Source: a virus (Duplodnaviria > Caudoviricetes). From it: DNA of 64,000 nt. The stretch covers positions 102,529-166,528 of IMG/VR virus record IMGVR_UViG_3300012662_000008; one strand, 5' to 3'. Positions 2,255 through 64,000 of this stretch are shown here, one piece after another. Under the pieces are notes generated by a model that had not been told where the DNA came from, ran no database searches, and saw only the letters and a program-made list of their open reading frames with translations. The first letter of the stretch is position 1. Every line of letters starts with the position of its first letter. The translations under genes and the position numbers were made by a program.

Positions 2255-2267
2255 ATTGTTTTATATA

Positions 2268-3301: not shown

Positions 3302-3363
3302 ATTTTAATATTTTAAGAAATTGGAACTCTACGTTCCGATCAAGGAGCGTAGAGTTAATTGTT

Positions 3364-5322: not shown

Positions 5323-5334
5323 TTCCTCCTATAA

Positions 5335-6888: not shown

Positions 6889-6913
6889 AAAATAAATTTA
6901 AAAATAAAAATAT

Positions 6914-7834: not shown

Positions 7835-8016
7835 TACTTTAATAACTCTACAAGCATTGCTGCTGTCTTTGGATCTGTTGCGTTATTTATATAATATATA
7901 AACGTAACAAGATTCATAATTCGATTCATTCGCTTTTTGTTGAACGGGTATCCAATTAAAAGATCATTCAGCTCTTCAGAAAAGAGCTCCTCAAACTCTT
8001 TATATATTTCATTCAT
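7834..8016 (-). CDS. Small hypothetical protein
   Basis: MNEIYKEFEELF...; stop/start overlaps with both neighbours. Confidence 0.6.
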   Translation of the reverse strand: MNEIYKEFEELFSEELNDLLIGYPFNKKRMNRIMNLVTFIYYINNATDPKTAAMLVELLK

Positions 8017-8747: not shown

Positions 8748-8749
8748 AA

Positions 8750-11174: not shown

Positions 11175-11442
11175 TTTTACACCCGTTATAAACGAGATCT
11201 ATTTTATAAAAACCAACCCTTGTTAATTGCCTGGTTTTTAACTCTTTAATTATATATTTTTTGAACTGTTCAAAATCACCCTGGTAGGAAAGTATAAGTG
11301 GTACTAACTCGCGATCCAGATAAAGAAACAGACTTCACATATCCGGCTCGTCGAACCTAACTTCAATCTTGCCTATATATTGGGCTTCAGTCACCTCTTG
11401 GACTAGTTCAACTATTTGCTGCTGGTATTGTTCTATATCCAT
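11158..11442 (-). CDS. Hypothetical protein between terminase and portal (94 aa, one TGA=Trp)
   Basis: MDIEQYQQQIVELVQEV...PDM(TGA)SLFLYL...ECNE-TAA. Confidence 0.65.
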
Positions 11443-14400: not shown

Positions 14401-15763
14401 CAAATATTGCATTTTACATTGTTTTTCTCAAGCTCGTTTTTAATATCTTCTAGCATGCTTTTTGTTTTAGAGACAATTGAAAAATTTGCACGAAACCTCT
14501 CGTTCTTTTTATATTTCAGGTCTGGTTTTATATAATAACCGCTAACACAACCATCTCCGTCGAAATATCCACGTATAAAATGTGGAATCAGATCTTTTGG
14601 TATGTTTGGTATATGATTTTCTGCTCATGTTTTTCTGTAACCGAGCCCAAGAGCAACTAAATCTTGGCAGAGTGTTGTACTGTTTATATCTACACCGTAC
14701 GTTGTTGCACACTCATAAATTTCTCCATGTCTGCCAATTTTTTGTTTTCCGCGTTCAATAACAAACGTTCTTGCAGTTGGACAAATGATATCCTTAAAAT
14801 AGTTAACAATATATGCATCGTCGTAGCTAAGATGTATCCTAAACGTTTTTCGTTTTTCATTTATATTTCCATCGGACGCATATAATCCAAGAAGATATGC
14901 TTGCATCTCTGTTTCGATCTTTGAAAAAAATGTATGGCGCATATATCTCTTACTTCGTATATGCTTTTCCATAGGATAATTATCCTCTATAAACTTAATT
15001 TGTTCTTCTTTATTCATAATAATCGTGATTCAATCACATTTCATTTTAGTTTCTACCGATTTTGCGAAGTTTATTACCTATATATTACTATATAGGAGCA
15101 CATATTATTTATGCCACGGGCTTTTAATATACAAACATCTTTATGTAGTTTTTCGCACATATCTACGTAATGAAAAAACTCATATTGCTTTGCCAGGAAA
15201 GATGGAAATGCCTCTTTTCGACCTGCTCCAGAAACTGCATTTTCAACAACAGTTTCCATTCTATAAAAGTTCAAAAAGAAATAATGATCTCCAGTAATCC
15301 TATATCGTCCAACAGTGTAACCGTTCTTACATCGATCGATTTGTTCCATCCAAAATTCCCTTCATTTTTTTGATCCTTCTGGAAACTCGGTAAAAGCCCC
15401 GTCACGATCATATATAGCAGCCGTTTCTCTAAAAGGAGTCGGGTCAAAATCGAGACCTTTCTGCATTGTAATCGGTCTGTAGCCAGTTAATTCATAAGAA
15501 AGTTCTGGATCGAAATATTGTATTTCTTCGTCAATTGGAACATCTCACTCTTCCCCAGGACGAGCTTTGTGAATATTTGTTTTTGCATTCATCATTTCTT
15601 CGATTTCTGCGTCACTCTGTGCCTGTTGCTCATTTTGCTCTTTAAAAAGTTGCTCAATTAATGCAGCCTCAGATTTCATGCTAAAATCGGGGAGTCTTTT
15701 CTTTTGATCAACAATCCGCTCTTTCTCTGGCGGTAGTTCTATATTTGGTGTTTTTCTAGCCAT
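11357..15763 (-). CDS. terL: Terminase large subunit (exons 15763-15111, 14095-13669, 12595-11357; TGA=Trp)
   Basis: The spliced product restores Walker A LKARG-I|GLSE, Walker B LIYDEGG and GTG|GD, and includes the nuclease motif YVAGIDAID; exact C-terminus is uncertain because it overlaps the next gene and has several TGAs. Confidence 0.88.
12596..13668 (-). mobile_element. Group I intron 2 of terL with LAGLIDADG ORF in the P1 loop
   Basis: Exon ends ACAGGU; IGS GCCUG lies about 830 nt downstream; P3 UCGAGCA/UGCUCGA; P4 AUCGGUA/UACCGAG; P7 GCGUA/UACGC; ends GATAACAAAATTG; removal gives GTG|GDD. Confidence 0.85.
12755..13636 (-). CDS. LAGLIDADG homing endonuclease (293 aa, one TGA=Trp)
   Basis: Motifs AYWLGFMYADGNI and FIRGYCDGDGS; track ORFs 13217..13636 and 12755..13177 share a frame. 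Confidence 0.88.
14096..15110 (-). mobile_element. Group I intron 1 of terL with LAGLIDADG ORF starting in the P5 region
   Basis: P1 GGCAU/GUGCU; P3 CUUCGCA/UGCGGAG; P7 GCGCA/UGCGC; ends GATAACAAATTG; removal gives LKARGIGLSE. Confidence 0.85.
14103..15017 (-). CDS. LAGLIDADG homing endonuclease (TGA=Trp; ends at 14151 if the last TGA is a stop)
   Basis: Motifs AYLLGLYASDGNI and FIRGYFDGDGC; track ORFs 14625..15017 and 14151..14456 share a frame. Confidence 0.88.
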
Positions 15764-15764
15764 A

Positions 15765-16343
15765 CTAATCCAAAAGTCCTAATTTGACATCTCCCCGAAC
15801 TTTTTCGCCACTCTCAGCAAGATCTCTCTTGTGTGTAGCTTCTAGTTCTTGGAGTTGCTTTCGTATTTCGGAGATGGACTTAATATCTGCTATAACGTCT
15901 TTTGGTTTGTATAACGGACGCCCATCTGCATCTATGTCGTTATTAAAATCTATATTATCCAAAAACACCTGCATCTTATGCAGTGTCTTATATGCAGTTT
16001 TAATTAACGATAAAATTGGGTCTGACTCTTGTATTTCTTGGTACTTATGATATGCTGCCAGAAAAAGTTCATCTTTCAGATCATCTTCGCATAATCCAGA
16101 ATCATCCAATGCAGCTTCGTGCTTGTCTTTCTCTAGATATTGAAAGTACGGAGATTTGAAATCCAGAACTAAATAAATATATGTAAACTCCTTATATGCA
16201 CGGAGTCTCATCTTTCCACTCTTATCTTCCTTACACTTATTTCTAGCTATATCTCACAAGTCCTTAAATTCTTTTACAAGTAGGACACTATACTCTTCTA
16301 TTGTTAACTTATTTTCTGCGTTATCAAACACAAAAAAATTCAT
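15765..16343 (-). CDS. Hypothetical protein immediately upstream of terL (possible small-terminase-like; TGA=Trp)
   Basis: ATG at 16343; EFKDL(TGA)DIARNK joins track ORF 15765..16211; function suggested by position only. Confidence 0.65.
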
Positions 16344-16996
16344 TACTTCTTATCTGCTGCGTTTTTCATTGGGAAACCAGGTTTGATTCCCGCCTTCTCT
16401 AAAAGTGCTCCAACATAGTTAACTACAGCCGCAGAGTCTGCACCATGCAGATCATTGAATGGGCCATATCCATTATAAACGGACGTTACTCCATTTTTAT
16501 CGGCGTTAACATATAGATGGTTATCCAGGTAGTCGCCCATTGCGACATTAAAATCACTATTCGGATCTTTCTTTTGATTCACAGTTAATGATTTACGTGT
16601 TGGAGCAGCCTCTACTTGAACGGTCCCGTCCGATCCGTATTCTTGTGAAACATACTTGTTTCTTGAAATTCATTCTGGAACTTTTGTTTTTGTGCCATCC
16701 TGCGCTTTAACTAAAAGTTGTTCCAACTTCCCACCCTTCTTAAAAAGACCTGCCTGTTGTGCGGCTTGAGCAGCAACTTGATCGATCTGATCGTGGTATT
16801 GTGAGTAGATTGTTACAACTCCCTGCAAAAGCTCTTTATCTTCCTGGAGCATCTGCATTGCTTGTTGTGGCTGTTTCTTGATCTGGGCAACTAACTCATC
16901 CGGGAAATCTGCACCAGCTTGTTTGAATGCCTGTGCATATATTTCTGGAACTAAACAAAACGTCTGTGCAGCTGCTTGTAGTGTTTTTTCATCCAT
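16343..16996 (-). CDS. Hypothetical, possibly virion-associated protein (TGA=Trp)
   Basis: Track ORFs 16670..16996 and 16343..16582 join through one TGA; FKKGGKL and KAQDG motifs. Confidence 0.65.
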
Positions 16997-16997
16997 A

Positions 16998-17234
16998 TTA
17001 AATGTGTACTAAATCCTTTGTAGAGAAAACTGCCTCTTGCAGTTCCCCATCTTTTGAAAACCACCTACAACGCAGGCCAGTAAAAATAGACTCACGTTCG
17101 GATGATTCTTTATTTATAAAAGTTTTTGTAACTTTTTCTACAACGTACATTGCTGGTCTATTATCCAGCTCTTCGTGTCGTACCACTACTATATCTCCGG
17201 GCACGAAATAGATCTTGTCATTTTCAGTGATCAT
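16998..17234 (-). CDS. YodC/DUF2158-like small protein
   Basis: F-x-PGDIV...CRWFSKDGELQEAVF pattern. Confidence 0.6.
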   Translation of the reverse strand: MITENDKIYFVPGDIVVVRHEELDNRPAMYVVEKVTKTFINKESSERESIFTGLRCRWFSKDGELQEAVFSTKDLVHI

Positions 17235-17235
17235 A

Positions 17236-17622
17236 TTACTTTTTAACTATTCTACATATTATATTTGTTTCATTAATTGCTCGATATCCCTTGTTCCTAA
17301 AAGGAATCGGTTGTGCAATCATTTTAACAGCAATAACATCATCTCCTACATTAACATATTTGCATGCTGGTCCTACTGCAACAACCTTGGCAACAGCCAT
17401 ATATTCTTCAGAGTCCTCCATTTCTCCGGTCTCATTCGATTTATATCGCTTGTTCCCTTCCAATCCTAAAATCAATCCACTCTCAGTCTTTTCTAGTTCG
17501 CGATATGGATTTTCATCATAAAATTTCAGGATCACATTCATATTGCATGGCGTTATCTCAACTTCATCTGTGTTAATATCTTTTATATTCTTTTCTAAAA
17601 TTGTTTTTGCTACGTTATTCAT
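17236..17622 (-). CDS. groES: GroES-like co-chaperonin
   Basis: EKTESGLIL mobile loop and AKVVAVGP...VNVGDDVI. Confidence 0.8.
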   Translation of the reverse strand: MNNVAKTILEKNIKDINTDEVEITPCNMNVILKFYDENPYRELEKTESGLILGLEGNKRYKSNETGEMEDSEEYMAVAKVVAVGPACKYVNVGDDVIAVKMIAQPIPFRNKGYRAINETNIICRIVKK

Positions 17623-17839
17623 TTCACTTGTTCATTAAACATTTTTCATCTTTCACTCTAGTCTTGGCTGACAAAAGGCATCCACAGAGACTGCAGATCG
17701 CTTCGTTTTTTGTCAGTCTTATGCGCTGATCGCAGCTAGCGCATATATCTAGCCTTTTCTTGGCTAGTGCTGTATTTCTTTTAAAAAGCCAGTTCCATCA
17801 ACCGACTATTATATGTTTTATTTCTATAAAAATATTCAT
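17615..17839 (-). CDS. Small Cys-rich Zn-binding protein (TGA=Trp)
   Basis: RLDICASC...CSLCGCLLSAKTR...KCLMNK(TGA); paralog of the adjacent gene. Confidence 0.7.
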
Positions 17840-18054
17840 TATCAAAATCCTGCTACACAATGACTATCTACGTGAGGTGTTTTTTTCTCCAAAAAACATC
17901 CGCAACCTTTAACATATCCTTCCTTTGGCAAAAAGGAGGTCTTACCTTCTTTATTTATATATTTACTAGAATTGCAAACTGGGCCAAACTGGCTCATTTT
18001 GTACAACCCACATTTTTCACATATTGCCAACCGTTTTTCAGAAAGTGTACTCAT
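17839..18054 (-). CDS. Small Cys-rich Zn-binding protein
   Basis: RLAICEKC...GCGCFLEKK...HCVAGF(TGA)-TAA. Confidence 0.7.
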
Positions 18055-19004
18055 TATATTATAAAAGGTTTATCGCGGTCTAATTCCGCTTGGATTTTCT
18101 TTTGTTTCTTGTAGTGAGCAATCATATGCTCAACGTCCTCTTTAAGATATTGGCACGGATATTCAACCTCTGTGCCGTCGTCCTTCAACTGTACAATCAT
18201 AAGACCTTTTACAACTAAGTCGGGCCTTTGCTGCTGTATCATTCATGCATACAGGCTCGTTTGCAATTGATAATGGTTAAAATTGCAATCATCTAGGTTG
18301 TTTAACGGAAATTGCATTTTAACACTTTTCCCTGTTTTTTTGTTAAAATAGCTTTTTTTATCAATTGTTTTAGATGTTTTTCAATCAATAATATATAAGT
18401 CTGTCCCATGTACAACAACTAGATCAGATATTCCTGCAAGCATCAACTCCCCGTCATCAGATTGCCATTGTATAAGAAATTCTGGATAAACTCCATTCTG
18501 GAGATCAAGTTTGTAGTAATTTTCTCTACACTCAAATTCTCCTTTTAAGTCTTTATAACCGTACTTTCCAAAATCAAACTGATTTTTGTTATAAAAAGAC
18601 AATTCTTTCTTCTCGTGTGCAAGAGTTCCCTTTATGCAGGCATCGTTCCTTTTTCTCTCGTACTCGGCGAGTATTTCAGATTTCTTTTGTTCAAAATCAG
18701 CTAAGTTAACGCCTAATTTACTAAGTAAACGCAGGTCGAACCGTTTTGTAGTAAGAAGAGTTGTTTTAATTGGCAACCAAACTTCCATTGGAAGCAGTGC
18801 CTCCAATGCTTTATAAGACGATCAAAAATTTTCATCGAATGGCTGTCCGTACGAATTTACAATGGTTGTGCAAGAAACGTACGTTTTCATTGTTTCTTTA
18901 TTGTAGTACTTATGCTGTTCGTCATTAAAAAAACAAACGTCGTTTTCTTTATCTATTTTTATATCTTTAAAAAACCTTTCTTTTTCATTGTGTCCTGCTG
19001 GCAT
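18054..19004 (-). CDS. PD-(D/E)XK family exonuclease (316 aa, TGA=Trp)
   Basis: GTLAH, LAGISDLV...IID(TGA)KT and YQLQTSLYA motifs; three track fragments in one frame. Confidence 0.85.
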
Positions 19005-19252
19005 AATTCATTTTCATTAAACATTAATTATCTTTTAAACTTCTTTATTATATCGTTGTACGGATTTGGAGAAACATTATCATATCATTTATAATTTTCA
19101 TTGAGCTCTTTTATTAATTCATCTTGGCTCATTTTTGTTTCTTCCAAAAACTCAACTCACGAATATATGTATCCGAAAAAATATCACAATTATCTAATTG
19201 CGTTTTTTGTTTGTTGTTTTCCTTTCTACTATAATCATCTGCTGGCTGTATC

Positions 19253-19753
19253 TTATTCGCCAGATTCTGATATTTCTTTATTTTCATCACTTTTTGTTAT
19301 TGACAACGTTCCAATCTTTCTAACATCATAACCCTTTTCACGGGCAATTTCAGAAAATTCTTTGTTATTAAACAAACTTTCATTGTTTTCTTTACATCTG
19401 GCAAAAACTTCGTCTCCGAAACCTTTCTCAGGTTCCCTTAAAGGACATAATGAATTGATACACAACGCGTTAGAACATTGCATTAGGTCTGATTTTAATC
19501 CGTTTATTTCTTCATGAGCCTTTGCATTCATTTCAAAAAGTTCACGATTTCGACTCTCTTGACTCTTAATTGTTTCTTGCATTGCACGAAAAGCATCTGC
19601 ATAAGATTGCATCTCTGTCTGTTTAGTGGCAGCCTCGATTGCCTTGTTATCTATTTCTGGTTTTCTCTTAGCTGCCTTAGGGTTTAAAAGAAACATAAAA
19701 CTTCCACCAGTTAATGCTCCTATTATCATTGATATTATAGATACCCAATCCAT
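19253..19753 (-). CDS. N-terminal membrane anchor plus coiled-coil protein (holin-like candidate)
   Basis: Hydrophobic N-terminus WVSIISMIIGALTGGSFMFLL followed by a coiled coil. Confidence 0.5.
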   Translation of the reverse strand: MDWVSIISMIIGALTGGSFMFLLNPKAAKRKPEIDNKAIEAATKQTEMQSYADAFRAMQETIKSQESRNRELFEMNAKAHEEINGLKSDLMQCSNALCINSLCPLREPEKGFGDEVFARCKENNESLFNNKEFSEIAREKGYDVRKIGTLSITKSDENKEISESGE

Positions 19754-19805
19754 TCATATATTTGTTATTAGTTTTAGTTTATTAACTTATTGTTCCATTC
19801 TGCCG

Positions 19806-19874
19806 CAAATATATAAAAAATAATTGATTTCTGCAACTTTTGTTTTGTTATTCTCCAGATTTTTTATATATTTG
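19806..19874. promoter_or_regulatory. Divergent Bacteroidota-type promoters (-7 TAnnTTTG)
   Basis: TATATTTG on minus at 19806-19813 and on plus at 19867-19874, between divergent genes. Confidence 0.65.
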
Positions 19875-19897
19875 CAGATCATTAAAAATAAAATATT

Positions 19898-20134
19898 ATG
19901 GACATATTTAGACTACTTAACTTAGTTGGGGCATACACCCCAATTCCTGCTTTTAGAGATGGCGGTCTTATAAAAGCAAAATCTGGTATTCATATAAAAC
20001 CAGAAAATGAGGGGAAATTAACAAACCTAAAAAAGAGAACAGGAAAAACAGAGGCTGAACTCTGAAAAGATGGCGATGCATCCGTTAGAAAGATGATCAC
20101 ATTCGCTAGAAATGCAAGAAAGTGAAAACATTAA
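19898..20134 (+). CDS. Small basic protein (78 aa, two TGA=Trp)
   Basis: FRDGG...IHIKPENEGK...FARNARK(TGA)KH-TAA. Confidence 0.7.
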
Positions 20135-20520
20135 TGAAAGTTATTTATAACAAAATTTTGCCGGTGCCTGGATTTTATGCTATCACGATCCTAAAATGGA
20201 TTTTTATTAGAGAAGAGTACAGAAAGTACGATGGCACAGAGACTTACAAAAGAATGCTTAGACACGAGGGGGTCCATTATGCACAGATAATGGATTTTAC
20301 TCCAGATTGTTTTCCAGAATGGCTTAGGCTTTTAATTGGGGGAATTTGTTTTTATCTCCTTTACTTGCTTGAGTGGCTTTGGAAACTTATCCCTTGCGCA
20401 ATTAAAAAGCATGATGCTTACAGAATGATTTCTTTTGAACAGGAAGCATACGAGCACGAAAATGAACTAGATTATAAAAGAAAGAGATTTGATTGAATTA
20501 AAAATATTTTTAAAATATAA
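20134..20520 (+). CDS. HExxH-containing membrane protein
   Basis: RHEGVH...FYLLYLLEW...AYRMISFEQEAY; reads through TGA 20494 to TAA 20520. Confidence 0.7.
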
Positions 20521-20525
20521 TTTTT

Positions 20526-21821
20526 ATGGCAACTTATCAACAAGCAAAAGCTTATTATCAAAAGCACGCAGATAAAGATACAATAAGAAAGATTCAGCAG
20601 TTTCTTGCTGTAAGAAATTCCAATGGTAATGGGGGCGTGAAACAATCCAATATAGGAGAGTCTTTCTATAATGGAGATTTAGATGGAATTTTTGGACCAG
20701 AAACATATAAGGCGATTCTGGAATACCAGAAAGCTATGGGAACAAATGCAGATGGAATGTGGGGGGAATCAACAAACAGTTTTCACCGAGTTTTAAATGC
20801 AACTAACTCGCCATATAGAGATGATGCCTCTGGGCCTTCTGGGGCACATTCTGGTTTTGTGAGAGGAGTCAATACTGGTCAGAAGTCACCTGCACCTCGA
20901 AAGAAGTGGGCTACACAAAACGATATGTATAGAGATATACAGGCACTTAAAGAAAGATATTATGGCCAGGGGGGCGAGGATTGGTTTTGATCCGAAGATC
21001 CATCGGCAACACAGTGGCGGGAATTTTTGGGATCTACACCTCAAGGCCAAGACATTTTTAACGAATTTTATGAAGACGCCGTTTCTAGAGGAAAGAAGCC
21101 GGATCGTAGACTTATGACAACTAAACAAAAACAGTTTGCATATAACACTGGCATTCGAGACGCAATTAACAAGGGAGGAAGGACAGTTGCTACTGTCGCA
21201 GGAGGATTAGCTTTACCATTGTCCTTCGCAGCAGCACCACTAGCCACTGCGTTTGGTGTTGCGGGAAGCGCCCTTGGTAGTAAAATCGGCGGAGACCTCG
21301 CTGCAAATTTACATGAAGGAGACACATCTGGGTTTACTACAGCTGATCAATATTATGGGCAAATCGCCACAGCAATACCTGCCGAGAATTACCATAGACC
21401 ATTTGGTCAAATTATTGGTGGTACCGTTGGTGGCCTTGCAGGAGGTACGTTTGGTAGTAATTTTGAGCCAGGATTACCAAGATTAGGTTATGGCAGAAAT
21501 AGCTACGGAACTTCAGGGAAAGTTTATACTACCCCGAGATCTATGTATCGAGATGCAGTTACTGGTAGAGGCGTAAACCCATCAGAAATTTATTCTGTTC
21601 CAACAGGCGCAGAATGGCAACCTAGAATCGCCGATACTCCAGGACTTGTAGGAAGTAGCCGATTGCATGTTGGGCAGTTTGCACCAAAATCTTGGCGGAA
21701 TCCATCTGTTGAATTTGTGAATTATTTAGAAGGTGCCGGTGGGAATCCAGCGTACTCACCAACCGCGCAAACCATGTTCTCCTTTAAAAGGGGAGGAATT
21801 TTATGTAGAAATAATTATTAA
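20526..21821 (+). CDS. Peptidoglycan-binding domain protein with Gly-zipper segments (431 aa, TGA=Trp)
   Basis: DGIFGPETYKAILEYQKAMG..ADGMWG; track ORFs 20526..20990 and 21027..21821 share a frame. Confidence 0.75.
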
Positions 21822-21825
21822 AAAC

Positions 21826-21856
21826 AGAAAACCCAGGCCTAATGGTCTGGGTTTAT
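21826..21856. terminator. Bidirectional terminator between convergent genes
   Basis: AAACCCAGGCC-TAAT-GGTCTGGGTTT hairpin. Confidence 0.65.
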
Positions 21857-23263
21857 TTGTTTATTAAGTTCATTTTGTATATATAAAAAAGTAGGATCTG
21901 CTACCAGTGCCTTTTTAGGCAACGGGTCCTCAAAAGAAAGGGCTACTCCCTCTTTTGCTTTATTATAGTTCTCGTTATTTTTATGTTTATTTATATCTTT
22001 TCTCTCCAAAATAAAATTAACGTAATCTCTCGTTTCCTTCGGGAGGTGTTCAAGTCAGTCCAGACTTTGATATATATCTTTTCCTGCCCGTTTTGCTTTA
22101 TTAAGAGCATTTATTGTATTTCTTCTTCCATAATTATATGCGGCTAATGTTTTAGCCCACAAAACTCTGTCAGATGGATTTCCTTTTGTAAAAACATCAG
22201 AAGCTATATCGCGACCAATTCTCCAGTCTCGTACTTTTTGATTGTCTTCTGGGTTATCTAGGTCTATTTTTATTTTTGGATTTGCCTGTAAGTAATCCGC
22301 TAGTGCAGCCGGCATAATTTGAAAAAGCCCCTTTGCTCCTTTTGGACTTTTGCCAGTAGAAGAAAAATTGTTTTCCATAAAAGCCTGCCTCATTCCTATT
22401 TCATTGGCATCTATGTGTTCTCCACGAGTATCTGCCGGCAACAATTTCCCCCATTGAAATTTCGGCAACTTTGTTCCTTTCTTAGCAAAAATACTCTCCT
22501 CAGCAGCACGTACCCTTCTATCTAGATTTCCAGATCCCGATTTTCCGTACATCTCCTTGTGTTTTTTCGCATATTTTGCTTCTATTTTTGAAACACGGGC
22601 ATATAAGTCATCTAGGCTAGATATATTTCTCTCGTTTGCCCCTGTGTATTGCGCATAAGTATATGCTGTCGCATCTTTTGCTGTTTGGGCTTTTCTAAGG
22701 TTGTTTAGATAATCACTGTATTTGTTTTGTATCTCGTCTATTGCAAAATCTAGCTGCGTTTTCAGATCGGCAACTCCACCATGCTCTGCTACGTAACGAG
22801 CAAAATCATCATGCCTGGATCCTGTTCATTGCCCAATTCCAATTCCGTATTGATTTGATTTTACAGAACTGTTCTTTCCTGCCTTCTCCTCTTTGTTTTC
22901 TGCATTTATATTAAACCCAGATTCTGCCTGCCAAACCCCTACTAAACCTGCTGCCTGTTCCTTTGTAAGACCTAATTTCTGCTGAAGATATTTACTAGCA
23001 GCGTGCCGCATGCCTAGATTAGTAGTATTGGAAAAGTCTATTTCAGCCCCCTGGGGTTTCTCTTGGGAAACCGTTTCTACTTGGGGTGTGTTTTCCTGTG
23101 TTTCTGTAGGCGTTTCTACCTGAGTGTCTTCCGGGGTTTCTGCAGATTGTGTTGTTTCTTGTGTTTTTGGTCGGAATCTTGGTTGATATCCTATTATTGG
23201 CTCCTCTGGTTCCTGTGTTGAACTTGAAAAGTCTTTATTTACTGTTGCTTGGTATTGTATCAT
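21839..23263 (-). CDS. Two-domain peptidoglycan hydrolase: phage tail lysozyme plus SLT transglycosylase (TGA=Trp)
   Basis: QAAGLVGVWQAESG...GIGIGQ(TGA)TGSR; SPKGAKGLFQIMP, LAAYNYG and LPKETRDYV. Confidence 0.85.
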
Positions 23264-23685
23264 TACTTCTTTATTTCGAATTTCATTTTTCTCTGTTTTC
23301 CATCATTATTGAACAATCCAAAATGCAATCACTTGCTCTTTCCAGATTGCTCAATAATGCACTGATCCCAGCTTTTACTAGCGTCCAGATAAGAAAGGAC
23401 AAACTTACAAAAAGCATCAAACTGACCATTTATTGGTCAGAGATCAACTGCATTTCCTGTTGTGTGTGCCGAAGTCGGAACGCCGCCTACAGCCTTGTTA
23501 AGAGCAGGGCATCTATATCCAGAGTTAATTCTAATTCCGGATCCCCATTTCTCTCTAAGAGAGTTCAGAAAATCTATAAGTCTTTTAAGGTTCTCTTCTA
23601 CTTGCTTTGTAGGAGTATTATCTATGTGCTTTGCTACTGCTGTATCGGAGTAGCAGAGTTCTTGTACTGTGAAATATTGTTTCAT
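23263..23685 (-). CDS. Endolysin, peptidase M15A family (140 aa, two TGA=Trp)
   Basis: INSGYRCPALNKAVGG..SAH..GNAVD and C-terminal (TGA)LHFG zinc-ligand motif. Confidence 0.85.
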
Positions 23686-23912
23686 GGTAACTCTATATAT
23701 TTATTTTCAACTAAAAAATCCAGAGTTTTTTTTACATCTGAGTAATCTAAGTTTCTAAATTTTGAAATAGTTTCAACAATGTCTTCTCCATCAAAAACAA
23801 CTGCAGGAGATACTCCGACAAAATAACTTCAAACAGGATACGCCCAATCTGGTATGGCCTTATCGTGGTTAACAGTTCAAGTTTTAAAATTATTCACCCC
23901 CAGCTCCACCAT
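23682..23912 (-). CDS. Small partner protein b (76 aa; immunity-like candidate)
   Basis: Paralog of 24962..25192 with identical length; two internal TGA. Confidence 0.65.
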
Positions 23913-24960
23913 AGTTATTAACAATTACAGTTGTTCCAAAAAGAGTTCCCGTTAGACCGGACCACAGTCTTTTATAATCATCTTCTGTTTGAAGATTGAA
24001 ATATTTTTTTAGTTTGCTAAGTCTTTCGTTTTTTGTTATGAGTTTTTCTAGCCCATCTTTACCTATATATTTAGAGCCGGGTTTTAATCCTAATTCTTTG
24101 CCAGATTGGGAGAGCCACGCTGCGGTCTCAGTTGGGTTTTTTAGATATTTTAGCTCCTCGTGCAGTTGGGCAGGTACTTCGCTGTATGATTTTCAGATTT
24201 TATTCGCAATATCTACATTCACGGGATTTGATCCAAGATCTCCATATCCAAGGGTGTGAAGTCGTTCATGAAAAGCAGTTGACTCCACTTTTTCTATTGG
24301 TAAGTTCTTATTTATATCAATCTTATTTGAATATCCAGCACGTATTGTTTGTGGGGTAAAAATAAACTTCTCTGTACCGTCTTGTAGAACTCTTGCATAA
24401 GCCCCTCTCCCATTTGAAACAACTCCCAGATCAACAAGCTCTATTTTTGGAGACGTATTTGCGCGAGTAATATACTCGCTAGCCTGAGTTGCAGGTCATT
24501 GTATCTGCGTTTGCCCAAGCGCTTGTTGTCTCGCGAATCAATCTGTATTTCTTTGTATAGATGCCTGTACTGCTGGGTCTTTAACAAAAGCATTGGCATC
24601 GCGCACACCTTTATTTGCGGCGGCCTTCATTTCATTTTCGAGAGCCTTTGTTGTAAACTTTGTTTTCCCAACCGGTGTTGCACTATACAATAAGTCCTCT
24701 GTATTTCCGGATATAGCCGTTTCTATAAGTGCTTTATAAGCACCAGGAGCCATAACTTTTGCAAGCCAGCCTCCGGGCTGCGTCCACATAAGAGCAACAT
24801 CCATTGCAGGATGCTCTTGTTTTAGTGGCTTTTCTTTTGGAAGAGAATGTTGCCTTTCTTCTAGTTCTCTATCTTTGTCTATCTTTTCATATAACGCTTG
24901 TTCAAGATTTTCCCGATCTCTTTTGCGTTTTCAGTCTATTCAAAATTTTGGTATTGGCAT
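23890..24960 (-). CDS. Zincin-like metallopeptidase protein B (356 aa, TGA=Trp)
   Basis: FHERLHTLGYGD...PTETAAW; the frame stays open only if TGA=Trp. Confidence 0.75.
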
Positions 24961-24961
24961 A

Positions 24962-25192
24962 TTAGTAAAACTCAATTATGCTATTGCTTACTAGATATTC
25001 GATCGACTCTTTAACAATTCCAATTGGTTCATTTATTTTCTTTGAAATTATTTCTGCTTTATCCTCTTCTTCATAAAATACTGCTGGGCGAATCCCTTCA
25101 AAATATTGAAGGGTTTTTTTATAAAAATCTGGAACAGGCTTCTTGTGAATTTTTCAAAAAATTAATTTTTTAGTACAATCCATTGGGAGCAT
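24962..25192 (-). CDS. Small partner protein a (76 aa; immunity-like candidate)
   Basis: Shares H-x-K-x-[IV]PD..YFxGxxPAV..LVxNxxIE with 23682..23912. Confidence 0.65.
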
Positions 25193-26243
25193 AATTTTCA
25201 GAATTTAGAGTTGATACCACTATGCCAGTATACAATGTTCCAGTCAGGCCTTTTCATAATTTCTTATAATTTTCCTCTGAGTCTAATTTTAAGAAATTAA
25301 GCAGGTAATTAAGTCTGGTTTGATTTTTATTTTTTTCTATGAATTTTTTAACCCCGTCTACTCCGGGATATGGTGTGCCAGATCTTAATCCTAGTTCGTA
25401 TCCGGTTTGTGCGAGTCACGCAGCTGTTTCGTGAGGCTCTTTTAAATATCTCATATAATCCACAGCAGCTTGAGAGTGCATATCTGTTTCTGGTTTAAAT
25501 AAAGAAAGCCCCAACTCCGAGTTAACTGGATTACTAGAGGCATCTCCGTAGCCAAGCACGTGTAATCTTTCATGAAATCCTGTCGACCTAGCACTAGACG
25601 CAGTATGATCTAAATTCACAATAATTTCATTTCCGCCGTTTGGAATAGATTCTTTCATTGAAATTAAAAATCTCCCATTGTCATCTACTGCAACTTTTGA
25701 TTCGCCTCGTTTTGTACCAAGATTTTTTACTTTTATTCTTGGAGAATAAAACGAGGCAGTTTCAATTTCGTCTTGGGAAATTGGAGACCAGTCTATATTT
25801 TTATATTTTTCTTTATTCTTTAGAAAAAGATCTATATTTCTTTGAATAGAAGCTCTTGTTGGGTCACTGGTTAAAAACCGATCAGCATCTCTCGCCCCTT
25901 TTCGAGCCGCTCTTTTTATTTCGTTCCGAGGAATTTGTTTTAATGCCTTAATACCAGCTTTTACTGGCCTCTCAATTACATTAGGAACTGCAAGTAACGC
26001 AAGATTCAATGCACCTTTTTTTCAGTCTCCATTTGAAAAATCTATAATTGCTTGTCCTCCTTGTAAGATATCTCCTACTACCGGAGCATACCCCATCGGA
26101 TTATCGGTAATATCTAATTCTTGTGTTGGGGTGTATTGTCTAGCAACAATAGTTTCTTTCCTTTGAGGATTTCATGCAACTGCCGTATTATCAGCAGGCA
26201 TGTAAGGCAAGTCTCCCGAGTTTTGGTATTTTCTAATTTTCAT
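25170..26243 (-). CDS. Zincin-like metallopeptidase protein A (357 aa, TGA=Trp)
   Basis: FHERLHVLGYGD...PHETAA(TGA); N-terminal GYAPVVGDILQG...GALNLALLAVP helical hairpin. Confidence 0.75.
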
Positions 26244-26275
26244 AACGGCGCGAATATAATAAAAATATTTGGATT

Positions 26276-27013
26276 TTACAAGTTATATGTATGTGTTTCC
26301 ACTCTATTTCTTTCAAGAGCTTCTTCGCGCTCCTTTCTCTGTTTTCATTCACGGAGTTCAGCAAGTTCTTTTTTCATATCTTCTATATCCGATGTGTTTT
26401 GTATAACCTGCTGCGTAACGGCACGTGCCCATAACTCTGCTTGTTGCAAGCTATTAAGATCAAAATTCTTTTGTATCATCGGAAATCCGGCTTCGTCTGT
26501 CTTATTCATGGTTTCTTCTTCAAGAAACCCGTGCTCTATAAGGTATGTGTTGTATTTTTTAACGGAAAGTTTACTAATCCCTAACTTTTCAGATAATGTT
26601 GAATTACTAAGAGTGCAACGTCCAACTCCGGAGTCTTTTCCATATAAAAATTGTTGAATTCCCATATAATATTCTTTCACGTTAAGCGGCATATCTATTT
26701 TTAAAAAGCTTTCTGTAAACATCTCAAAAAAGTTATCAAACTCGGTTCTAACAAACAAGTAAGAGTTGCTTGAACCTTTTCCATTATTTTTCTTTTGTAT
26801 AAGTCCATTTTCACACAATCTATCTATTGCTGCGAGAACTTTTGTTCTACTGCATTTAAGCGATTTTGAAATTGTAGTAATACTCGGATAGCATTCTCTA
26901 GTATCCCAATTCATATATTTTTTAATTGCGGCAAAAATAACTTGATCTCCTTGTTCTAATTTTCCTTGTCTCTTTAAATTAATTAACTCGTTTGGAATTT
27001 CTACATGTTGCAT
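26276..27013 (-). CDS. Helix-turn-helix replication-initiator-like protein 1
   Basis: CYPSITTISKSLKCSRTKVLAAIDRLCENGLI winged HTH; paralog of 32776..33501; one TGA near the C-terminus. Confidence 0.75.
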
Positions 27014-27107
27014 TTTTTGATAAATTTTTATATTAAAATATCTATTTTTACAAAGTTAAAAATATTTTTACATACAAACAAGTATTTTTATATAAAAATA
27101 TATTTTT

Positions 27108-27205
27108 CTAAACTGGACTACTCCGCTTCCAAATTGGACTACTATTTTTTCAAACTGGACTACTTCTTTTCTAGATTGGACTACTTTTGTTCTAAACTGG
27201 ACTCT
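27108..27205. repeat. Iteron-like direct repeats, 5 copies, 21-bp period
   Basis: TGGACT at 27114, 27135, 27156, 27177 and 27198; followed by ACTTAA repeats to about 27260. Confidence 0.85.
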
Positions 27206-27261
27206 AACAATACTTAATATAATTAATATACTTAATAGACTTAATGAACTAGACTTAAAGC

Positions 27262-27300
27262 AAAAAATCGCAGCGCTACAAAAGTAGTACTGCGATTTTT
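27262..27300. terminator. Terminator hairpin
   Basis: AAAAATCGCAG...CTGCGATTTTT immediately after the stop at 27302. Confidence 0.7.
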
Positions 27301-27301
27301 C

Positions 27302-28865
27302 TTATTTCCTTTTTATAATTCCTCCATGTTTTCTATATAAAAGTCCTCTATCTATAAAAGGAAATGTTGGTCTATTTAAATCATATGGCAAAATTGATTT
27401 TGCTCCATTTATATTAAAATTAGGTAGAGCATAATAATCATAAGATGTGTGCTCCTGCTGCCTTAAAGGAGAATCTTTTTTTCGATAAAAGAAGACCCTC
27501 GCCTTTTTGCTGCGCGTCGTTTAATATTTCTTCAATTCTCTTTGCAGCAGCAGGCCTATCAACCCCATCTGCATTTTTAAATTTGGGCTTTCCGTCAATC
27601 GTTATAAAGTGACCTCCCATTTCTGGAGAAATTTCCATAGTTGCATCTCTAACATTACCAGTGTTTATAACAAAAGCGTTAATGTCGTTGACACCCGATT
27701 CAACTACACTTGGAGATACTTTTCTAATTCTAGTTTGGATGCCGCCTCTTTTTTGCATTGGTTTTATATCATATCCAATAGCACTCTTAGGTAATATAAT
27801 TGCACGCTCATCAAAATCTACATCCATTCTTATGCCGTTAAAAGTAACCTTATCCCCAGTTGCAGATGGTCTCAGTTGTCGATACCCACTCGGTTGCTCT
27901 AAAACATAATTTATATATCGCTCTACGCCCTCTTCCCCCTTTCCTAAATCCCCTAGAAATAAGTTTCCAAAAGCATTATCCATCGAGCCGCGTCCTTTTG
28001 CTAATTCTTCTGGAGTGAGTACGGGTCTAAAACTTGGATATCGCCGCGTATCGCCCCTAAATAACAACAGTGGTTCCCCAAATTCATTTACAGCAGCATT
28101 TCCAGGCTTAGAAAGAGACATTGCTTTCTTATATAAAGCTCCCGCTATCTCGTCATCCGTTATGTCGTCTCTTCCAACAAGTCCATATCTTTCCCTTGCT
28201 TCTGGAACGTATTTTTTTATTCTTTCCATTAAAGGGGATGCTTCTACTGGTGATTGAGTTCCATATTTTTTAAACATCTTAACAGCTTCGTCGCCTTGTT
28301 TTCAAGTTTGTGGGCCAAGTTTTCAATTAAAGTCTTTTACAGCTTGCTTTACGGCTAGAGCATATTCTTTTGCCAATTTAACCCCCTGTTTAATTCCTTG
28401 GCCTACTCCGTATAAACCTAAGGCTAGGTCTACTGCATTTCCTGGATTTAAAAATTCGGCACCTATATTTCCGGCTACGCCTCAATCATTTCCTTTGCGA
28501 ACTAGTTCTCCAAAAGTTTGATAATCTCCATTACTTTTTTGGTTTGCATAAAAATCAAGTGGAGTACCAAGTATATTCATAGATCGCATTGTTGTGTCAA
28601 ACGCATTACTTAGAAACTCCTTTTGACCTTCATGTATTTTATCTTTCATTTCTTTAGTTCCGACTTTTTCTTGTTGATCTTTTGTCCATTTTTTTACGAT
28701 CTTTCGGCTTGAGATTATCTGGGGTCTCGTCGTAGATCGTATCTATTATAGCACTAGCGCTATTGTTATATAACCACTGGCGAGCTTCTTGTGCTTTAGA
28801 ATCATCACTCCAGAATCATTCTGGATGCTGAATGGCGTATGTTTGAAGTTTATTAACATAGCCAT
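27302..28865 (-). CDS. Putative ADP-ribosyltransferase-like effector (TGA=Trp; +1 frameshift at A7 run 27476-27482)
   Basis: ATG at 28865 is in frame with track ORF 27438..28277; NEFGEPLLLFRGD...F...GNLFL...NAFVIN resembles the ART-PolyVal pattern; the shifted frame ends YRKHGGIIKRK-TAA. Confidence 0.55.
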
Positions 28866-52389: not shown

Positions 52390-52416
52390 TTAACCACTGA
52401 CTTTATAGTGGTTTTT

Positions 52417-52488
52417 ACCCTCGTAGTTTAATGCTTAGAACTGGGGACTTCAAATCCTTAAGTGCCTGTTGGATTCGGGCCGAGGGTG
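52417..52488 (+). tRNA. Opal suppressor tRNA, anticodon TCA (presumed Trp)
   Basis: ACCCTCG/CGAGGGT acceptor with G73; GGGGA-CTTCAAA-TCCTT arm (anticodon 52450-52452); short variable loop, so not tRNA-Sec. Confidence 0.88.
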
Positions 52489-52576
52489 CCTAACTAATTG
52501 ATTATAAATATTTTACATTGAAAAATTCTATTCCCACTCGGCTGTGAAGTCCAGTGGGTTTTTATGTTTTTAGCTA

Positions 52577-58870: not shown

Positions 58871-59328
58871 TGGAGAAATATGTTGTTTACTGTGATGGCT
58901 CGTATCAGGACTCGATAAAAGCGGGTGGATGAAGTTCTGTTATTCTAAAAGACGGAAAAGTCTTTAAAAAGCTTTATATGGGTTTAAAAAACACCACGAA
59001 TAATAGATGCGAAATTCGTGGTGTTTTAGAAACTCTGAAATATTTTAAGGAACCAACAGAACTAGAAATTCACTGTGATTCCCAATATGTTATTAACTCG
59101 ATTGTTAATGGGCATGCAAAAAAGTGATTTGATGATCAGGATTTTACCAAAAAGAATCTTGATTTGTGGTGAGAATTACTTGAACAATTGCCTAGACACA
59201 ATGTGACTTTTGTTTGAGTTAAGGGGCACAATGGTGACGAATATAACGAGTTAGCAGATATGTTAGCTGTACACGCGGCACAATGCTTGAATATACCAGA
59301 AGATGAAATCTGTAAGATTGATTTTTAA
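58870..59328 (+). CDS. rnhA: Ribonuclease HI (152 aa, four TGA=Trp; absent from the track)
   Basis: YCDGS, GG(TGA), TTNNRCE, CDSQYV, KNLDLW, (TGA)VKGH and NELADMLA motifs. Confidence 0.92.
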
Positions 59329-60174
59329 GAAAATTGGGAATCATTGGTACTTGAATATAAAACACCACAATCCCAATGATTTAATTTTAGATAGAAAGAT
59401 TGAGTTGTTTTTGAATAAGTTAGATATTTATGACGAAGGAATTGTCGATAATATCTGGCTTTTTGAGCAAGGAGATTATATAATTGAGGAAGGTCTTATA
59501 CAATTTAGCGAGGAAGATATGACTCGTTATTTTACCACAGAAGATGATTTTACAATGAAAATTTATATTGATAAGTATGAATTTTATTTAACATCTAGAT
59601 TATATAATTTGCTCGAATTGAATTACGACCTCGATTTACATGAATCCGTTTATAGAATTGCACTAGATGAAATATAAGGAATCTGAAGAGCAGCAGCCAA
59701 CTGTAGAAATTGCAATTGAAACGCAGGAAGAAGAATGTCCAATTGAGAAAGAGCAAAAAGATCTCGTTAAAATCTACAAGAAGATGATTAAGGAGCATCT
59801 TGAATTGATAGATAGTTCTTTGTGTACAATTAGAAGAATGATGGACAAACTTTATGAGTGCGGAGAAGATAACAATCCACGGGAAACTAGTTGCTAAACA
59901 AGACGGAATTTATATTAATTACGTCTTTAAAAATTTGGACGAAGATGATAAGAGTTTGTATAAGTATATAACTGTTACACAATGTCCGAATTGACAAAAT
60001 GTAGGTACTTTAACAATCGGGGACGAAGGTTTTGTTACTTTTGAATATGCCGAAGCTGGCGATGAATATTTGGAGGCAAACACAGACCAAGTTAAGCGAT
60101 ATAAGTACACTGCACTTTATTTTATGAATTTTATAAAAACAAAAGATATAAAAGATAAAAATTATAGTTTTTAG
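59303..60174 (+). other. Three hypothetical CDS (59303..59677, 59667..59897, 59854..60174 with one TGA)
   Basis: Overlapping junctions; CPN(TGA)QN read through in the third. Confidence 0.65.
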
Positions 60175-60176
60175 AT

Positions 60177-61022
60177 ATGAAAGAAAACACAACAGAGTTT
60201 GGAAGTGCAATTGCACAGGCAATTAAGACAGATATTAACCAGTACGTATGAAAGCGTAGGTCCGGAGAGGAAATACGGTTGATGGATATGGATGCTACGG
60301 AGTTGAATCGTGCATATAAGCATGTGCATGAAATGCTATATAACGAAGATAAGTACGTGCCTGGAAAGTATCAAACTAAAATAAATATGCAATACCTTAT
60401 CAATCAATGCAATGCAGAATTATTCAAGAGATACTTGATATATGAATGCAATATTGAAGCACTTAAAACTCCAATGCAAATTGTTACTCTTATTAGGGAG
60501 TACAAAAAGCAAAACAATCTTACTGACTCTGATCCTGTCTCTACTCTGTTTGATCACTTACCACAGGAGTTTGAGAGTGTGACTTATGGTGATCTTATCG
60601 CCGCTTGTCTTGACCAGCTTGAAGTTATTAATAGAAAAATGATTTCGCAGCATTTTATCCTTTCCAAAGGAATCTGACTTACTGAGCCTGAGAAAGAAGA
60701 ACTTTCTGAAAGAGATGATGAAGGAAAGAAAAGGCCATGGCTCGATGTTGTAAAGGAACGTTGTTTAATGCCTAGTGAAGTAAAGTTGAGAATTGATCCA
60801 AGAGGTTTTTCTTATAGTGAGTTTAGGGCGCTTATTCATCTTGCTCCACTGCCAAAGATTTCTGGTCTTTCCTCTGATACTCTGAGACTTATGCGAGACA
60901 AAGTTTTTCCAATGCTTTCTGAAGATACAGATTGGCATATTAAGAGGTGGACTGGAATTGCCAAACAAATAGAAGAGGTGGCCAATTATAAAGGAATTGA
61001 ACTTTTAAAGTTTGAAAAGTAA
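60177..61022 (+). CDS. Hypothetical protein upstream of the DNA polymerase (281 aa, TGA=Trp)
   Basis: Track ORFs 60279..60677 and 60768..61022 lie in one frame from ATG 60177. Confidence 0.75.
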
Positions 61023-62908
61023 TGATTATTAAAGGAAAAACTGTTTTTGTGTACGATGTAGAAGTGTTTCCAAACTTGTTCACTTGTTGCATAAAAAACA
61101 GTGAATCTGGAAATATAGTTAATTATGAAATATCGTCTCGAAATAATGAAATTGAAAGCATATATAATATATTTCACAATAAAAATATTATATTTTGTGG
61201 CTATAATAATCTACATTATGATGATCCTATAATTAACTATATTTTAATGAGTTACGAGGTTCTACATTTTGATGATTATTATAATATATGTCGAAAAATA
61301 AAAGAACTTAGTGATACAATTATTGAAACAAAAGACAATAATTTTTCCTCGTGATCAAAATATAAATATGCGCATCTTTTTCCAAGTTTTGATCTACTAG
61401 CAATGATGTTTTCTAGTAAGTTACGTGTTGGATTAAAAGAGATGCAAGTGACAATGCAATATAAAAATGTGCAGGAATATGATGGCGATTTTAACTCGTT
61501 AGTTCCGCAAAACGACATTGATGATGTTCTTGAATATAATAGAAATGATGTCGAATCTACTTGTGAATTGCTTTCTCGATTAAAAGAAGATATTGATCTT
61601 AGATTAGCAATTGAAAAAGAATATGGAATTAACGTACTTAGCAAGGATGGCGTTAATATTGGAATGGAAATTATAAAATCTCGTTATTTAAAAGAAACTG
61701 GACTTACTTGAAATGAAATAAAAGACAAAAAAAGTGAGTGCACATCTCTTTGTTTAGGTGATATAATTTTCGATTTTATCCAATTTAAAACCAAAACTTT
61801 ACAAGACCTTTTAAAAGACCTTAAAAATCAAACAATTACTCCAAACGATAACTCTTTTGAAAGAAAATTTATACTCGGAGGGGTTCCTCACACATTTGGC
61901 ATGGGAGGAATACATAGTGTTAATGAGCCAGAGCAATTTGAGCCTAAAGATTCGCAACTGCTTATAGATCAAGATGTTACCTCTATGTATCCAAGTATTA
62001 TATTACAACACAAAGTATATCCCCCACATCTTGGCGAAGCGTTTTTAACTGTTTATCAAAAGATTAAAGACGATCGTGTGAAGGCAAAACACGAAGGTAA
62101 CAAACTTGTTGACAAAACACTAAAACTTGCATTAAATGGACTTTCTGGAAACTTACAATCAGAACATTCTTGGGTATATTCTCCAAAAACAGCATTAACA
62201 ATCCGAATAAATGGACAGTTAATGCTTTTAATGTTAGCAGAGGCTCTTGATCAAATTGGAGCACAAATTATCCAATCCAACACAGATGGTGTGTTTATTT
62301 TGCTTGATAAAAGTAAACTTAATGAAATGCAAAATGTTGTTAACTGGTGAGAGAAAACTACCAAATTAACACTAGAGGCAGATTATTTTGAGCGTTTTTA
62401 TCAGTTTGCAATTAACGATTATGTTGGAGTTAAAAAGGGTTGGTCTGAGACACATGATCCAAAATTAATTAAAAAGAAGGGCCTTTTTATTGACTCTGTT
62501 ACTCTTGGGAAAGGGATGGCTCCAACAATTGTTGCAGAAGCTATAAATAACTATCTTGTACTTGGAAAAGAAGTTGATGAAACTCTTAAAGAGTGCGACG
62601 ATATATTAAAATTTTGTACTTACCAGAAGGTTAGTAAAGATTTTCTTGTAGAATATAACGAGCATATAATTAGACGCATAAATCGTTATTATATGTCCAC
62701 AGATGGAGGAAAAATGTATAAATGTAAAAGAGATCCTCTTACTCTAAAATTAAAGAACTACATTTCGATGTGCCCTAGTAAAGTAACGTTATATAACGAG
62801 TTTAATGAAATGCCAATAAAAGAACGACATATAAATTATACTTATTATCGATCTGAGGCATATAAAATAATAGATGCAATTAAATCGAAACAATTAATGT
62901 TATTTTAA
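61022..62908 (+). CDS. polB: DNA polymerase family B (628 aa, three TGA=Trp)
   Basis: Exonuclease YDVE and GYNNLHYD; polymerase DVTSMYPS, KLALNGLSG and NTDG; four track fragments in one frame. Confidence 0.92.
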
Positions 62909-62909
62909 T

Positions 62910-64000
62910 ATGCTTACTAGAACAGAACGACAAAAACTTGCATTAAAACGATGAGTAGAAGCCAGTTGCACCGCAGTCGTCTCAGCGTGCACTGGCTTCG
63001 GTTAAGCAAAACGAGATTGGCAATAATGGCAATTTCGTTGCTACTAAAACAAAATCCGGATGCATATATAATTGTTAGTGTTCCTACACAGTACTTGAAA
63101 GATCAATGGATTGCAGAATTAGAAAAATACAGTCTTGTTAATAATTGCGATGTAATTATAGTGAATACAATCGTTAAACATACGTATGTTGTTGATTTAC
63201 TGATAGTTGACGAAATTCATGCTACAGCCTCAGACATGTTTCAGAAGATTTTTACGGCAGTTAACTATAAAATGATTTTAGGACTTACTGCAACTCTTGA
63301 AAGACTTGATGGGAAAGAGATAATTATAAAAAAGTATGCACCGGTATGTGACACAATTACTCTTGATGAAGCAACACAAAATGGATGGGTTTCACCTGCG
63401 AAACATTATCTTGTTCTCTTGAATGTTGATTTAAAAGAATATAAGGAACTAGATAGGAAATTTAATAGTTATTTTGCGTTCTTTGGCTTCGATTTTAACT
63501 GTGCGATGTCAGCTTTGCAAGAATGACCGTATCGCAATAAGTTTGCGAAACAGATTGGGTCTGATCCAAAAACTGTTTTGCAGATGGCAGCACAATGAAT
63601 GAAGGCATTACACGCAAGAAAGGCTTTTATAGAGAATCATCCGAAGAAAATTGAAATTTGCAGACAGATTTTAGATGCTAGACAAGACACAAAATGCATA
63701 ACTTTTTGTCCAACAATAAAATTTGCAGAATCAATAAAAAGAGGGATTGTTTTACACTCTGGCAAGAAAGCATCTGAAAACAAAAAGGCAATCGAAGATT
63801 TTAACGTTGCTACTGAAGGAGTACTTAACTCCTCAAAAATGTGCAGGGAGGGCTGCGATATTGCTGGTTTAACAACTGGCGTTATAATGGATGTAGATAG
63901 TTCCAAACGATCTAGCATACAAAAAGCTGGAAGATGCGTTCGTTACTCGCCTGGAAAAACAGCCGAAATCTTTACTCTCGTTATTAACAACACCCAGGAA
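62910..64000 (+). CDS. Superfamily 2 (DExH) helicase, runs off window; Walker A interrupted by 5 nt at 63003-63007
   Basis: CTGFG|KTR, DEIH, LGLTAT, EGCDI and QKAGR motifs; internal TGAs. Confidence 0.85.

Follow-up and report, generated by a model that had tools for sequence, protein, structure and literature searches.

Crassvirales phages of the Zeta type have genomes of 145-192 kb with structural and replication genes of the crAss-like type, carry many introns and tRNAs, and frequently recode a stop codon (PMC7886860). The closest described systems are the recoded crAss-like phages with a tRNA-Sup(TCA), including the Zeta members Lera, ct1yV3 and c815351, in which TGA stands for Trp in late and replication genes while the UCA tRNA lies in a tRNA-bearing, standard-code region (PMC7886860, PMC12386605). 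The phage studied here appears to belong to the same lineage as these intron-rich genomes of about 145-192 kb, and its own UCA tRNA differs from the common form at the elbow of the molecule. G19-C56 is a near-universal tertiary pair of tRNAs. RNase P, the L1 stalk, L5, T-boxes and several proteins use the outer face of the 19-56 pair as a platform on which to stack (PMC4810234, PMC3664808). In the tRNA described below the pair is reversed to C19-G56. Judged from sequence, the whole is best read, with fair though not full confidence, as a Trp-charged opal suppressor of a Zeta-type phage whose compensated C19-G56 elbow would be a tolerated variation.

The window analyzed here comprises the final 64 kb of an IMG/VR virus record that is 166.5 kb long and, by estimate, 95% complete. 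The DNA polymerase encoded in it shares 47-50% identity with polymerases of named Crassvirales phages from human feces and 61% identity with that of the nearest IMG/VR relative, G001, which has a 168-kb genome. The genome's size, its portal-region group I intron, GroEL, tRNA genes and stop-codon recoding are all Zeta-type features, and from size and features, set against the published descriptions (PMC7886860, PMC12386605), we infer a Zeta-type crAss-like phage. The group I intron spans 9830-10046 (-) (Rfam RF00028, 74.6 bits) between the ORF pieces 8750-9835 and 9999-11174; because the latter piece matches a portal protein, the intron appears to interrupt the portal gene. A ClpP protease (35236-35796, Pfam 227.8 bits) and a GroEL chaperonin (56230-57807 (+), PHROG 470 bits) lie in a block that uses the standard code. 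A BLAST search of the tRNA locus against named phages gave zero DNA matches.

The tRNA gene, its parts and its immediate surroundings are as follows.

52417..52488 (+): tRNA(UCA), bases A1 through G73 (the discriminator); opal suppressor and probable tRNA-Trp (ARAGORN, Rfam, R1)
52450..52452 (+): anticodon U34-C35-A36 (sequence, ARAGORN, Rfam)
52448-52454 (+): anticodon loop C32-U33-UCA-A37-A38, of the standard 7 nt and with U33
52433..52434 (+): G18 (52433) and C19 (52434), in the 8-nt D-loop AAUGCUUA (Rfam alignment; register backed by covariation)
52470..52471 (+): U55 (52470) and G56 (52471), in the T-loop UUGGAUU; G56 can pair with C19 (Rfam alignment, covariation)
52487..52490 (+): U72 (52487, pairing with A1 at 52417), G73 (52488) and C74-C75 (52489-52490) (sequence)
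52392..52416 (+): 8-bp hairpin and trailing U run, abutting the 5′ end of the tRNA (fold -8.2 kcal/mol, z -2.95)
52533..52563 (+): hairpin and trailing UUUUU, 45 nt 3′ of the tRNA and stronger than the 5′ hairpin (fold -14.5 kcal/mol, z -3.55)

The anticodon TCA and the G73 reported in an earlier note on this DNA agree exactly with the sequence, and the gene is called by both ARAGORN (52417-52490, anticodon tca, with a 'SeC' label that derives from the anticodon only) and Rfam. Against RF00005 the 72-nt tRNA scores 53.8 bits (E 9e-9; model positions 1-71, full), the gathering threshold being 29 bits, and our own covariance model R1 gives 38.9 bits. The idea that such a tRNA might escape tRNA scanners fails, because both scanners tried, ARAGORN and Infernal/Rfam, detect it well over threshold.

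The cloverleaf is well formed, with A1-U72 and G73 at its end. An acceptor stem of ACCCUCG/CGAGGGU is followed by U8 and A9, a D-stem of GUUU/GAAC, an anticodon stem of GGGGA/UCCUU, a 4-nt variable loop (AAGU) and a T-stem of GCCUG/CGGGC. All four stems are intact, and among their 21 pairs only G-U departs from the Watson-Crick type. In the Rfam alignment the D-loop consensus AaUGGU.A stands over AAUGCUuA and the T-loop consensus UUCgAaU over UUGGAUU; this gives C19 and G56, and it bears out both the GC in place of GG in the D-loop and the altered T-loop that the earlier note had described. The core positions checked were U8, A14, G18, G19, A21, U33, G53, U54, U55, C56, A58 and C61, and the only departures are G19 to C19 and C56 to G56, which keep the pairing and change the base identities. 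Elsewhere the tertiary core is canonical (U8, A14, A15 with U48, A21, U33, G53-C61, U54, A58).

The encoded 3′ end consists of CC after G73. Since the base after C75 is T, the CCA end is only partly encoded and A76 needs post-transcriptional addition, so that completion of the tRNA would fall to the host's CCA-adding enzyme, which also reads the elbow. The hairpin on the 5′ side is probably the terminator of the upstream gene (51649-52389), a calcineurin-like phosphoesterase, and the hairpin on the 3′ side is probably the terminator of the tRNA transcript. A scan for consensus promoters and terminators, with Bacteroidota-type promoters outside its consensus set, found nothing specific at the tRNA; because it flagged neither hairpin, both are treated here as putative terminators.

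Whether a reversed pair is compensatory can be read from its relatives. A covariance model was built on the cloverleaf only, which kept the 19-56 pair out of the fit, and 110 tRNA matches from the window phage and five relatives were aligned, 107 of them with a usable D-loop. Across these 107 tRNAs, position 56 covaries with the D-loop core: C56 (n=95) is accompanied by GG in 94 cases, U56 (n=9) by GA in place of GG in 9/9, and G56 (n=3) by GC in 3/3 (C56 versus GG, Fisher's exact test, p = 5e-15). A pair count agrees; on the raw alignment, which contains some D-loop misregistration, there are 6 double-changed cells against 0.6 expected, a value reached in 0/500 shuffles, and the signal disappears when the partner column is slid. 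Watson-Crick pairs other than G:C occur at 19-56 in 12/107 clade tRNAs, whatever their anticodon, and 11% lack C56. It follows from this covariation that 19-56 acts as a Watson-Crick pair in these phages, a rule to which the window tRNA conforms. The earlier note's view of the double change as compensatory is thereby upheld. The clade-wide pattern shows pairing, rather than base identity, as the apparent constraint at this position, and the compensated G19C/C56G exchange would fit a working tRNA, as the same note had supposed.

The other G56 genes of the clade are orthologous copies of a tRNA-Glu(CUC) in G002 and G003.

L125:2117-2190 and L127:11992-12065 (-): tRNA-Glu(CUC) with C19-G56, in two related phages

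Their D-loops end in ..UUGCGUUA, their T-loop is UUGGAGU, and their anticodon loops are unusual, with G32/G38 or G32/U38; ARAGORN misses both genes, and Rfam gives them 42-44 bits. The two acceptor stems differ by compensated changes, which indicates that C19-G56 has been inherited there. Beyond the clade, a search by D-loop/T-loop pattern revealed genuine C19-G56 tRNAs for Lys, Cys, Gly, Arg, Glu and Trp in unrelated viral or metagenome contigs, some of which hold several such tRNAs in one cluster beside A19-U56 and U19-A56 tRNAs. Genuine tRNAs make up about 9/147 of the viral/metagenome matches listed, and the same pattern in cellular genomes gave no tRNA among the 120 matches listed (0/120), the two samples not being comparable. 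C19-G56 is neither unique nor tied to suppression; it is a rare but recurrent natural variant, and a compensated one. A limited literature search found no description of natural C19-G56 or A19-U56 tRNAs, which is not proof of novelty. An elbow of broad variety was also seen in a 3-kb cluster of about 27 tRNAs on one contig (L377, SDBU01026187.1, 660-3540), where 19-56 is G-C, C-G (Trp) or U-A (Glu, Ile-UAU and Lys-UUU), and possibly U-G in Lys-CUU.

The survey of other phage UCA tRNAs that the earlier note had envisaged did turn up two among 50 related records, in G001 and G002, and C19-G56 in neither, both having a canonical elbow with C56 kept. The G001 gene is syntenic with the window tRNA, both with the AAA-ATPase, GroEL and polymerase block downstream of them, and since this copy is still G19-C56, the swap arose in the lineage of the window phage and is a derived state. 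The loose UCA-tRNA pattern applied to the 50 records was unspecific, its forward matches being about as many as its control matches, and three apparent UCA matches in G038-G040 are not cloverleaf tRNAs. In IMG/VR, the pattern CTTCAAA-N13-14-GTTGGANNC gave no tRNA among the 117 matches listed, and hence no further UCA tRNA with G56 was found; an exact search with the anticodon arm gave 3 matches, all in coding sequence and none a tRNA.

Variant elbows extend to bacterial chromosomes. In two Bacteroidales genomes, non-G:C Watson-Crick pairs occupy 19-56 in 3/52 chromosomal tRNAs, namely A19-U56 in Arg-ACG and Gly-UCC, and U19-A56 in Arg-CCG, and a Nonlabens tRNA-Arg(ACG) likewise has A19-U56, with loops identical to those of the copy in the Bacteroidales MAG. 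The Bacteroidota loci with such elbows are L567 and L569 (G051), L577 (G055) and L498 (Nonlabens). As variant elbows occur in host and clade tRNAs alike, the host machinery evidently accepts them, and they are not special to the suppressor. C19-G56 is absent from the 77 cellular tRNAs sampled, so that host tolerance is demonstrated for A-U and U-A only. The proportion of non-G:C elbows is higher in the phages (12/107) than in cells (4/77), probably not significantly. A reversed Watson-Crick pair would preserve the contact between D-loop and T-loop and leave the outside of the tRNA corner flat. The swap is best read as a tolerated and presumably neutral variation, under a constraint to be a Watson-Crick pair rather than to be G-C. 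The path from G:C to C:G passes through a mismatch, a step that speaks for either a degree of help from selection or a relaxed constraint, and with this intermediate and no cellular C19-G56 seen, some room remains for selection on the elbow.

One form of such selection, which we consider unlikely, is adaptive counter-defense: G56, with C19 restoring the pair, would remove the U54-U55-C56 motif recognized by nucleases that cut the T-loop. Alternatively, the swap might alter another elbow-reading host factor and so protect the tRNA on which the recoded phage depends. Phage tRNAs reportedly escape anticodon nucleases through mutations in their loops, which would offer a precedent, and the 11% of clade tRNAs without C56 would suit the same idea, yet both other clade UCA tRNAs retain C56 and non-C56 elbows are found in host tRNAs too. 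The confinement of C19-G56 to phage or metagenome contigs (0/77 cellular tRNAs) and its recovery in the viral/metagenome pattern scan (about 9/147, against 0/120 cellular, among the matches listed) point the same way, but those scans are non-comparable samples and the enrichment is probably not significant. One published enzyme of this sort is CbCash, a type III CRISPR-associated Schlafen nuclease whose cuts in tRNAs fall chiefly in the T-loop, 5′ of U55, and whose stated target is a UUC motif; cleavage is nevertheless reported to be abolished by U54 and U55 single mutants only, with C56 not among them (PMC13462974), and the anticodon loop of the window tRNA, C-U-U-C-A, holds the same UC motif that CbCash also cuts. 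Since C56 goes unreported among the CbCash mutants and the motif persists in the tRNA's own anticodon loop, counter-defense is rated as possible but unsupported. A generalized version is slightly more doubtful still: non-G:C elbows, notably C19-G56, would be a phage strategy that makes essential tRNAs poor substrates for readers of U54-U55-C56, and RNase P, the CCA-adding enzyme, TrpRS and the ribosome could still accept them. If this were true, the lone suppressor tRNA would be the most valuable molecule that a recoded phage could shield in this manner.

The preferred reading, a working suppressor with a tolerated elbow variant, draws on the genes that it would serve.

1..28700 (-): structural/late block, with 61 in-frame TGA against 48 TGG; read-through is needed by 22/27 ORFs
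58901..64000 (+): replication genes with in-frame TGA, 6 TGA against 8 TGG
61022-62908 (+): DNA polymerase, with 3 in-frame TGA, each aligned to Trp in homologues

Translation with code 4 gives full-length portal, large terminase, tail/lysis and polymerase genes. At the three TGA sites of the polymerase, Trp is present in 78/80, 64/80 and 77/80 homologous loci. The tRNA's own block (28.7-58.9 kb) holds 89 TGG and 20 TGA, counted as in the other blocks over non-overlapping ORFs, and many of these 20 TGA are probably genuine stops across which the ORF caller extended its frames. The whole 166.5-kb genome yields 7 Rfam tRNA matches, all within the window, and its tRNAs comprise 5 canonical ones in addition to tRNA-like genes. 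The window tRNA is the sole credible UCA tRNA of the phage, and this, together with TGA as Trp in structural and replication genes, makes a Trp-charged opal suppressor the best reading. Host TrpRS would charge the tRNA with tryptophan, and UGA would then be read as Trp in both the structural and the replication genes; the structural/late block, with its portal, terminase, tail and lysis genes, would depend on it. The tRNA sits in a standard-code block and serves the recoded blocks, an arrangement as published for recoded crAss-like phages. Because of this location, the suppressor can precede translation of the recoded genes, and it would presumably be made beforehand.

The identity of the amino acid is supported by several features of the tRNA itself. 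G73 is the major Trp determinant in E. coli and B. subtilis, and the first base pair is another bacterial Trp determinant (PMC9976931). The G73 that the earlier note had proposed as a Trp identity element stands at 52488, and with A1-U72, which is found in both Bacteroidales tRNA-Trp as well, it fits bacterial Trp identity (PMC9976931). The determinant C34 is replaced by U34, a change obligatory for an opal reader, and C35 and A36 are retained. The acceptor pairs C2-G71, C3-G70 and C4-G69 contrast with G2-C71, G3-C70 and G4-C69, which are important in B. subtilis tRNA-Trp (PMC9976931), from whose synthetase a Bacteroidota TrpRS may differ. In view of U34 and of C-G at acceptor pairs 2-4, Trp charging is argued mainly from the protein alignments. 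Another reading, which we regard as very improbable, is that the UGA decoder carries a different residue, such as Arg or Gln. For suppressors of this kind, isotype models of the tRNAscan type reportedly hesitate between Trp and Arg, with the tRNA-Sup-TCA of a Zeta phage given as Trp-or-Arg (PMC12386605), the Trp determinant C34 is lost, and in a similarity ranking the host tRNA-Trp comes first only marginally (0.63 versus 0.61 for an Arg tRNA, a margin that is not decisive). Trp is nevertheless the residue in homologues at all three TGA sites examined (64-78 of 80 loci), the major bacterial determinant G73 is present where the Arg tRNAs of this analysis carry A73, and A1-U72, the D-arm and the variable loop all agree with the host tRNA-Trp.

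It is just as improbable that the gene is a decaying or non-decoding relic, with UGA read by a host tRNA, another phage RNA or the near-cognate tRNA-Trp(CCA), since, even though some recoded Zeta phages have no detected suppressor tRNA and others have apparently unused ones (PMC12386605, PMC7886860), the four stems with their 21 pairs are intact, the other conserved tertiary positions are canonical, the elbow changes compensate each other, the structural and replication blocks hold 67 in-frame TGA that demand an efficient decoder, the genome has no other credible UCA tRNA, and the nearest relative retains a syntenic one. The window tRNA is very probably, on comparative grounds, a functional opal-suppressor tRNA-Trp of a kind already published.

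Several other tRNA-like elements were observed in the window and in related phages. A 98-nt gene at 42518-42615 (+) (Rfam tRNA, 43.3 bits) has canonical acceptor, D and T arms, with a 48-nt domain that includes a 7-bp hairpin in place of the anticodon arm, and could be either a mimic of tRNA or a tRNA with an intron. ARAGORN in intron mode offers the same segment as a second 'tca' tRNA, a call that was rejected for its 9-nt intron inside the anticodon, its C33 and its mismatched stems. A 113-nt gene at 38145-38257 (+) (Rfam, 38.7 bits) has an insertion of about 41 nt in the anticodon arm and the T-loop UGCAAUU. Immediately upstream of it is a 465-aa gene (36713-38110) with matches to a PHROG 'RNA-binding protein' and Pfam DUF7788/DUF2828, and we take the pairing of the two to recall Ro/Y-RNA-type modules. 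A third element of 65 nt at 48787-48851 (+), matched by the clade model at 32.4 bits and called by neither ARAGORN nor Rfam, retains acceptor, D and T arms with a shortened anticodon region. In three related phages (L587-L589; G038:68650-68950, G039:46600-46900, G040:56780-57080), a conserved element combines an acceptor-like stem, GGUCUCC/GGAGACC, with a perfect T-arm about 80 nt away and lacks both the D arm and the anticodon arm; it could be a tRNA-like structure or one resembling tmRNA. Pistol ribozymes (Rfam RF02679) adjoin the tRNA clusters of two related phages, at L127:13266-13336 (-) with 73.8 bits and at L125:3599-3668 (-) with 59.9 bits.

Because this tRNA class and the recoding are published, and because the swap is isosteric and recurrent, the finding is a modest one. 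It nonetheless provides a natural example of a phage that rests all of its late-protein synthesis on a tRNA with a reversed elbow pair. Such a case may be of use in tRNA annotation and in the design of orthogonal suppressor tRNAs, and, as a clean natural substrate, it could help to show which elbow-reading enzymes or defense nucleases are sensitive to C56.

Among cellular tRNAs, the window tRNA can be compared with the tRNA-Trp(CCA) of the Bacteroidales genome G051 (locus L547). The two share A1-U72, G73, U8-A9, C35-A36, the D-stem GUUU/GAAC and a 4-nt variable loop, and position 56 is the only difference between their T-loops (UUCGAUU in G051, UUGGAUU here). They differ in U34 for C34, in C19-G56 for G19-C56 and in one additional U in the D-loop, and the acceptor, anticodon and T stems have diverged, so that overall identity is only 62-63%. 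Compared with the published tRNA-Sup(TCA) genes, the window copy has C19-G56 instead of G19-C56, D-loop and T-loop having 0 occurrences in PMC7886860 and PMC12386605. Most Zeta phages have 17-32 tRNAs, whereas the window phage has few, with 5 canonical ones and the tRNA-like genes.

The same elbow swap has been made in the laboratory. Engineered G19C/C56G tRNAs, as cited in PMC3602588, are reported there to retain the loop-loop interaction and aminoacylation; these are mutants of E. coli-type tRNAs, whereas the window tRNA is a natural gene on which a phage depends. The nearest natural parallels are A19-U56 (Bacteroidota tRNA-Arg(ACG) and tRNA-Gly(UCC), and 9 clade tRNAs) and U19-A56 (tRNA-Arg(CCG)), which are likewise compensated with the Watson-Crick pair kept. 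A G-U wobble can bridge the change from G-C to A-U, whereas C-G needs two transversions through a mismatch; unlike the A-U and U-A elbows, the C-G elbow was found here only in phage or metagenome contigs.
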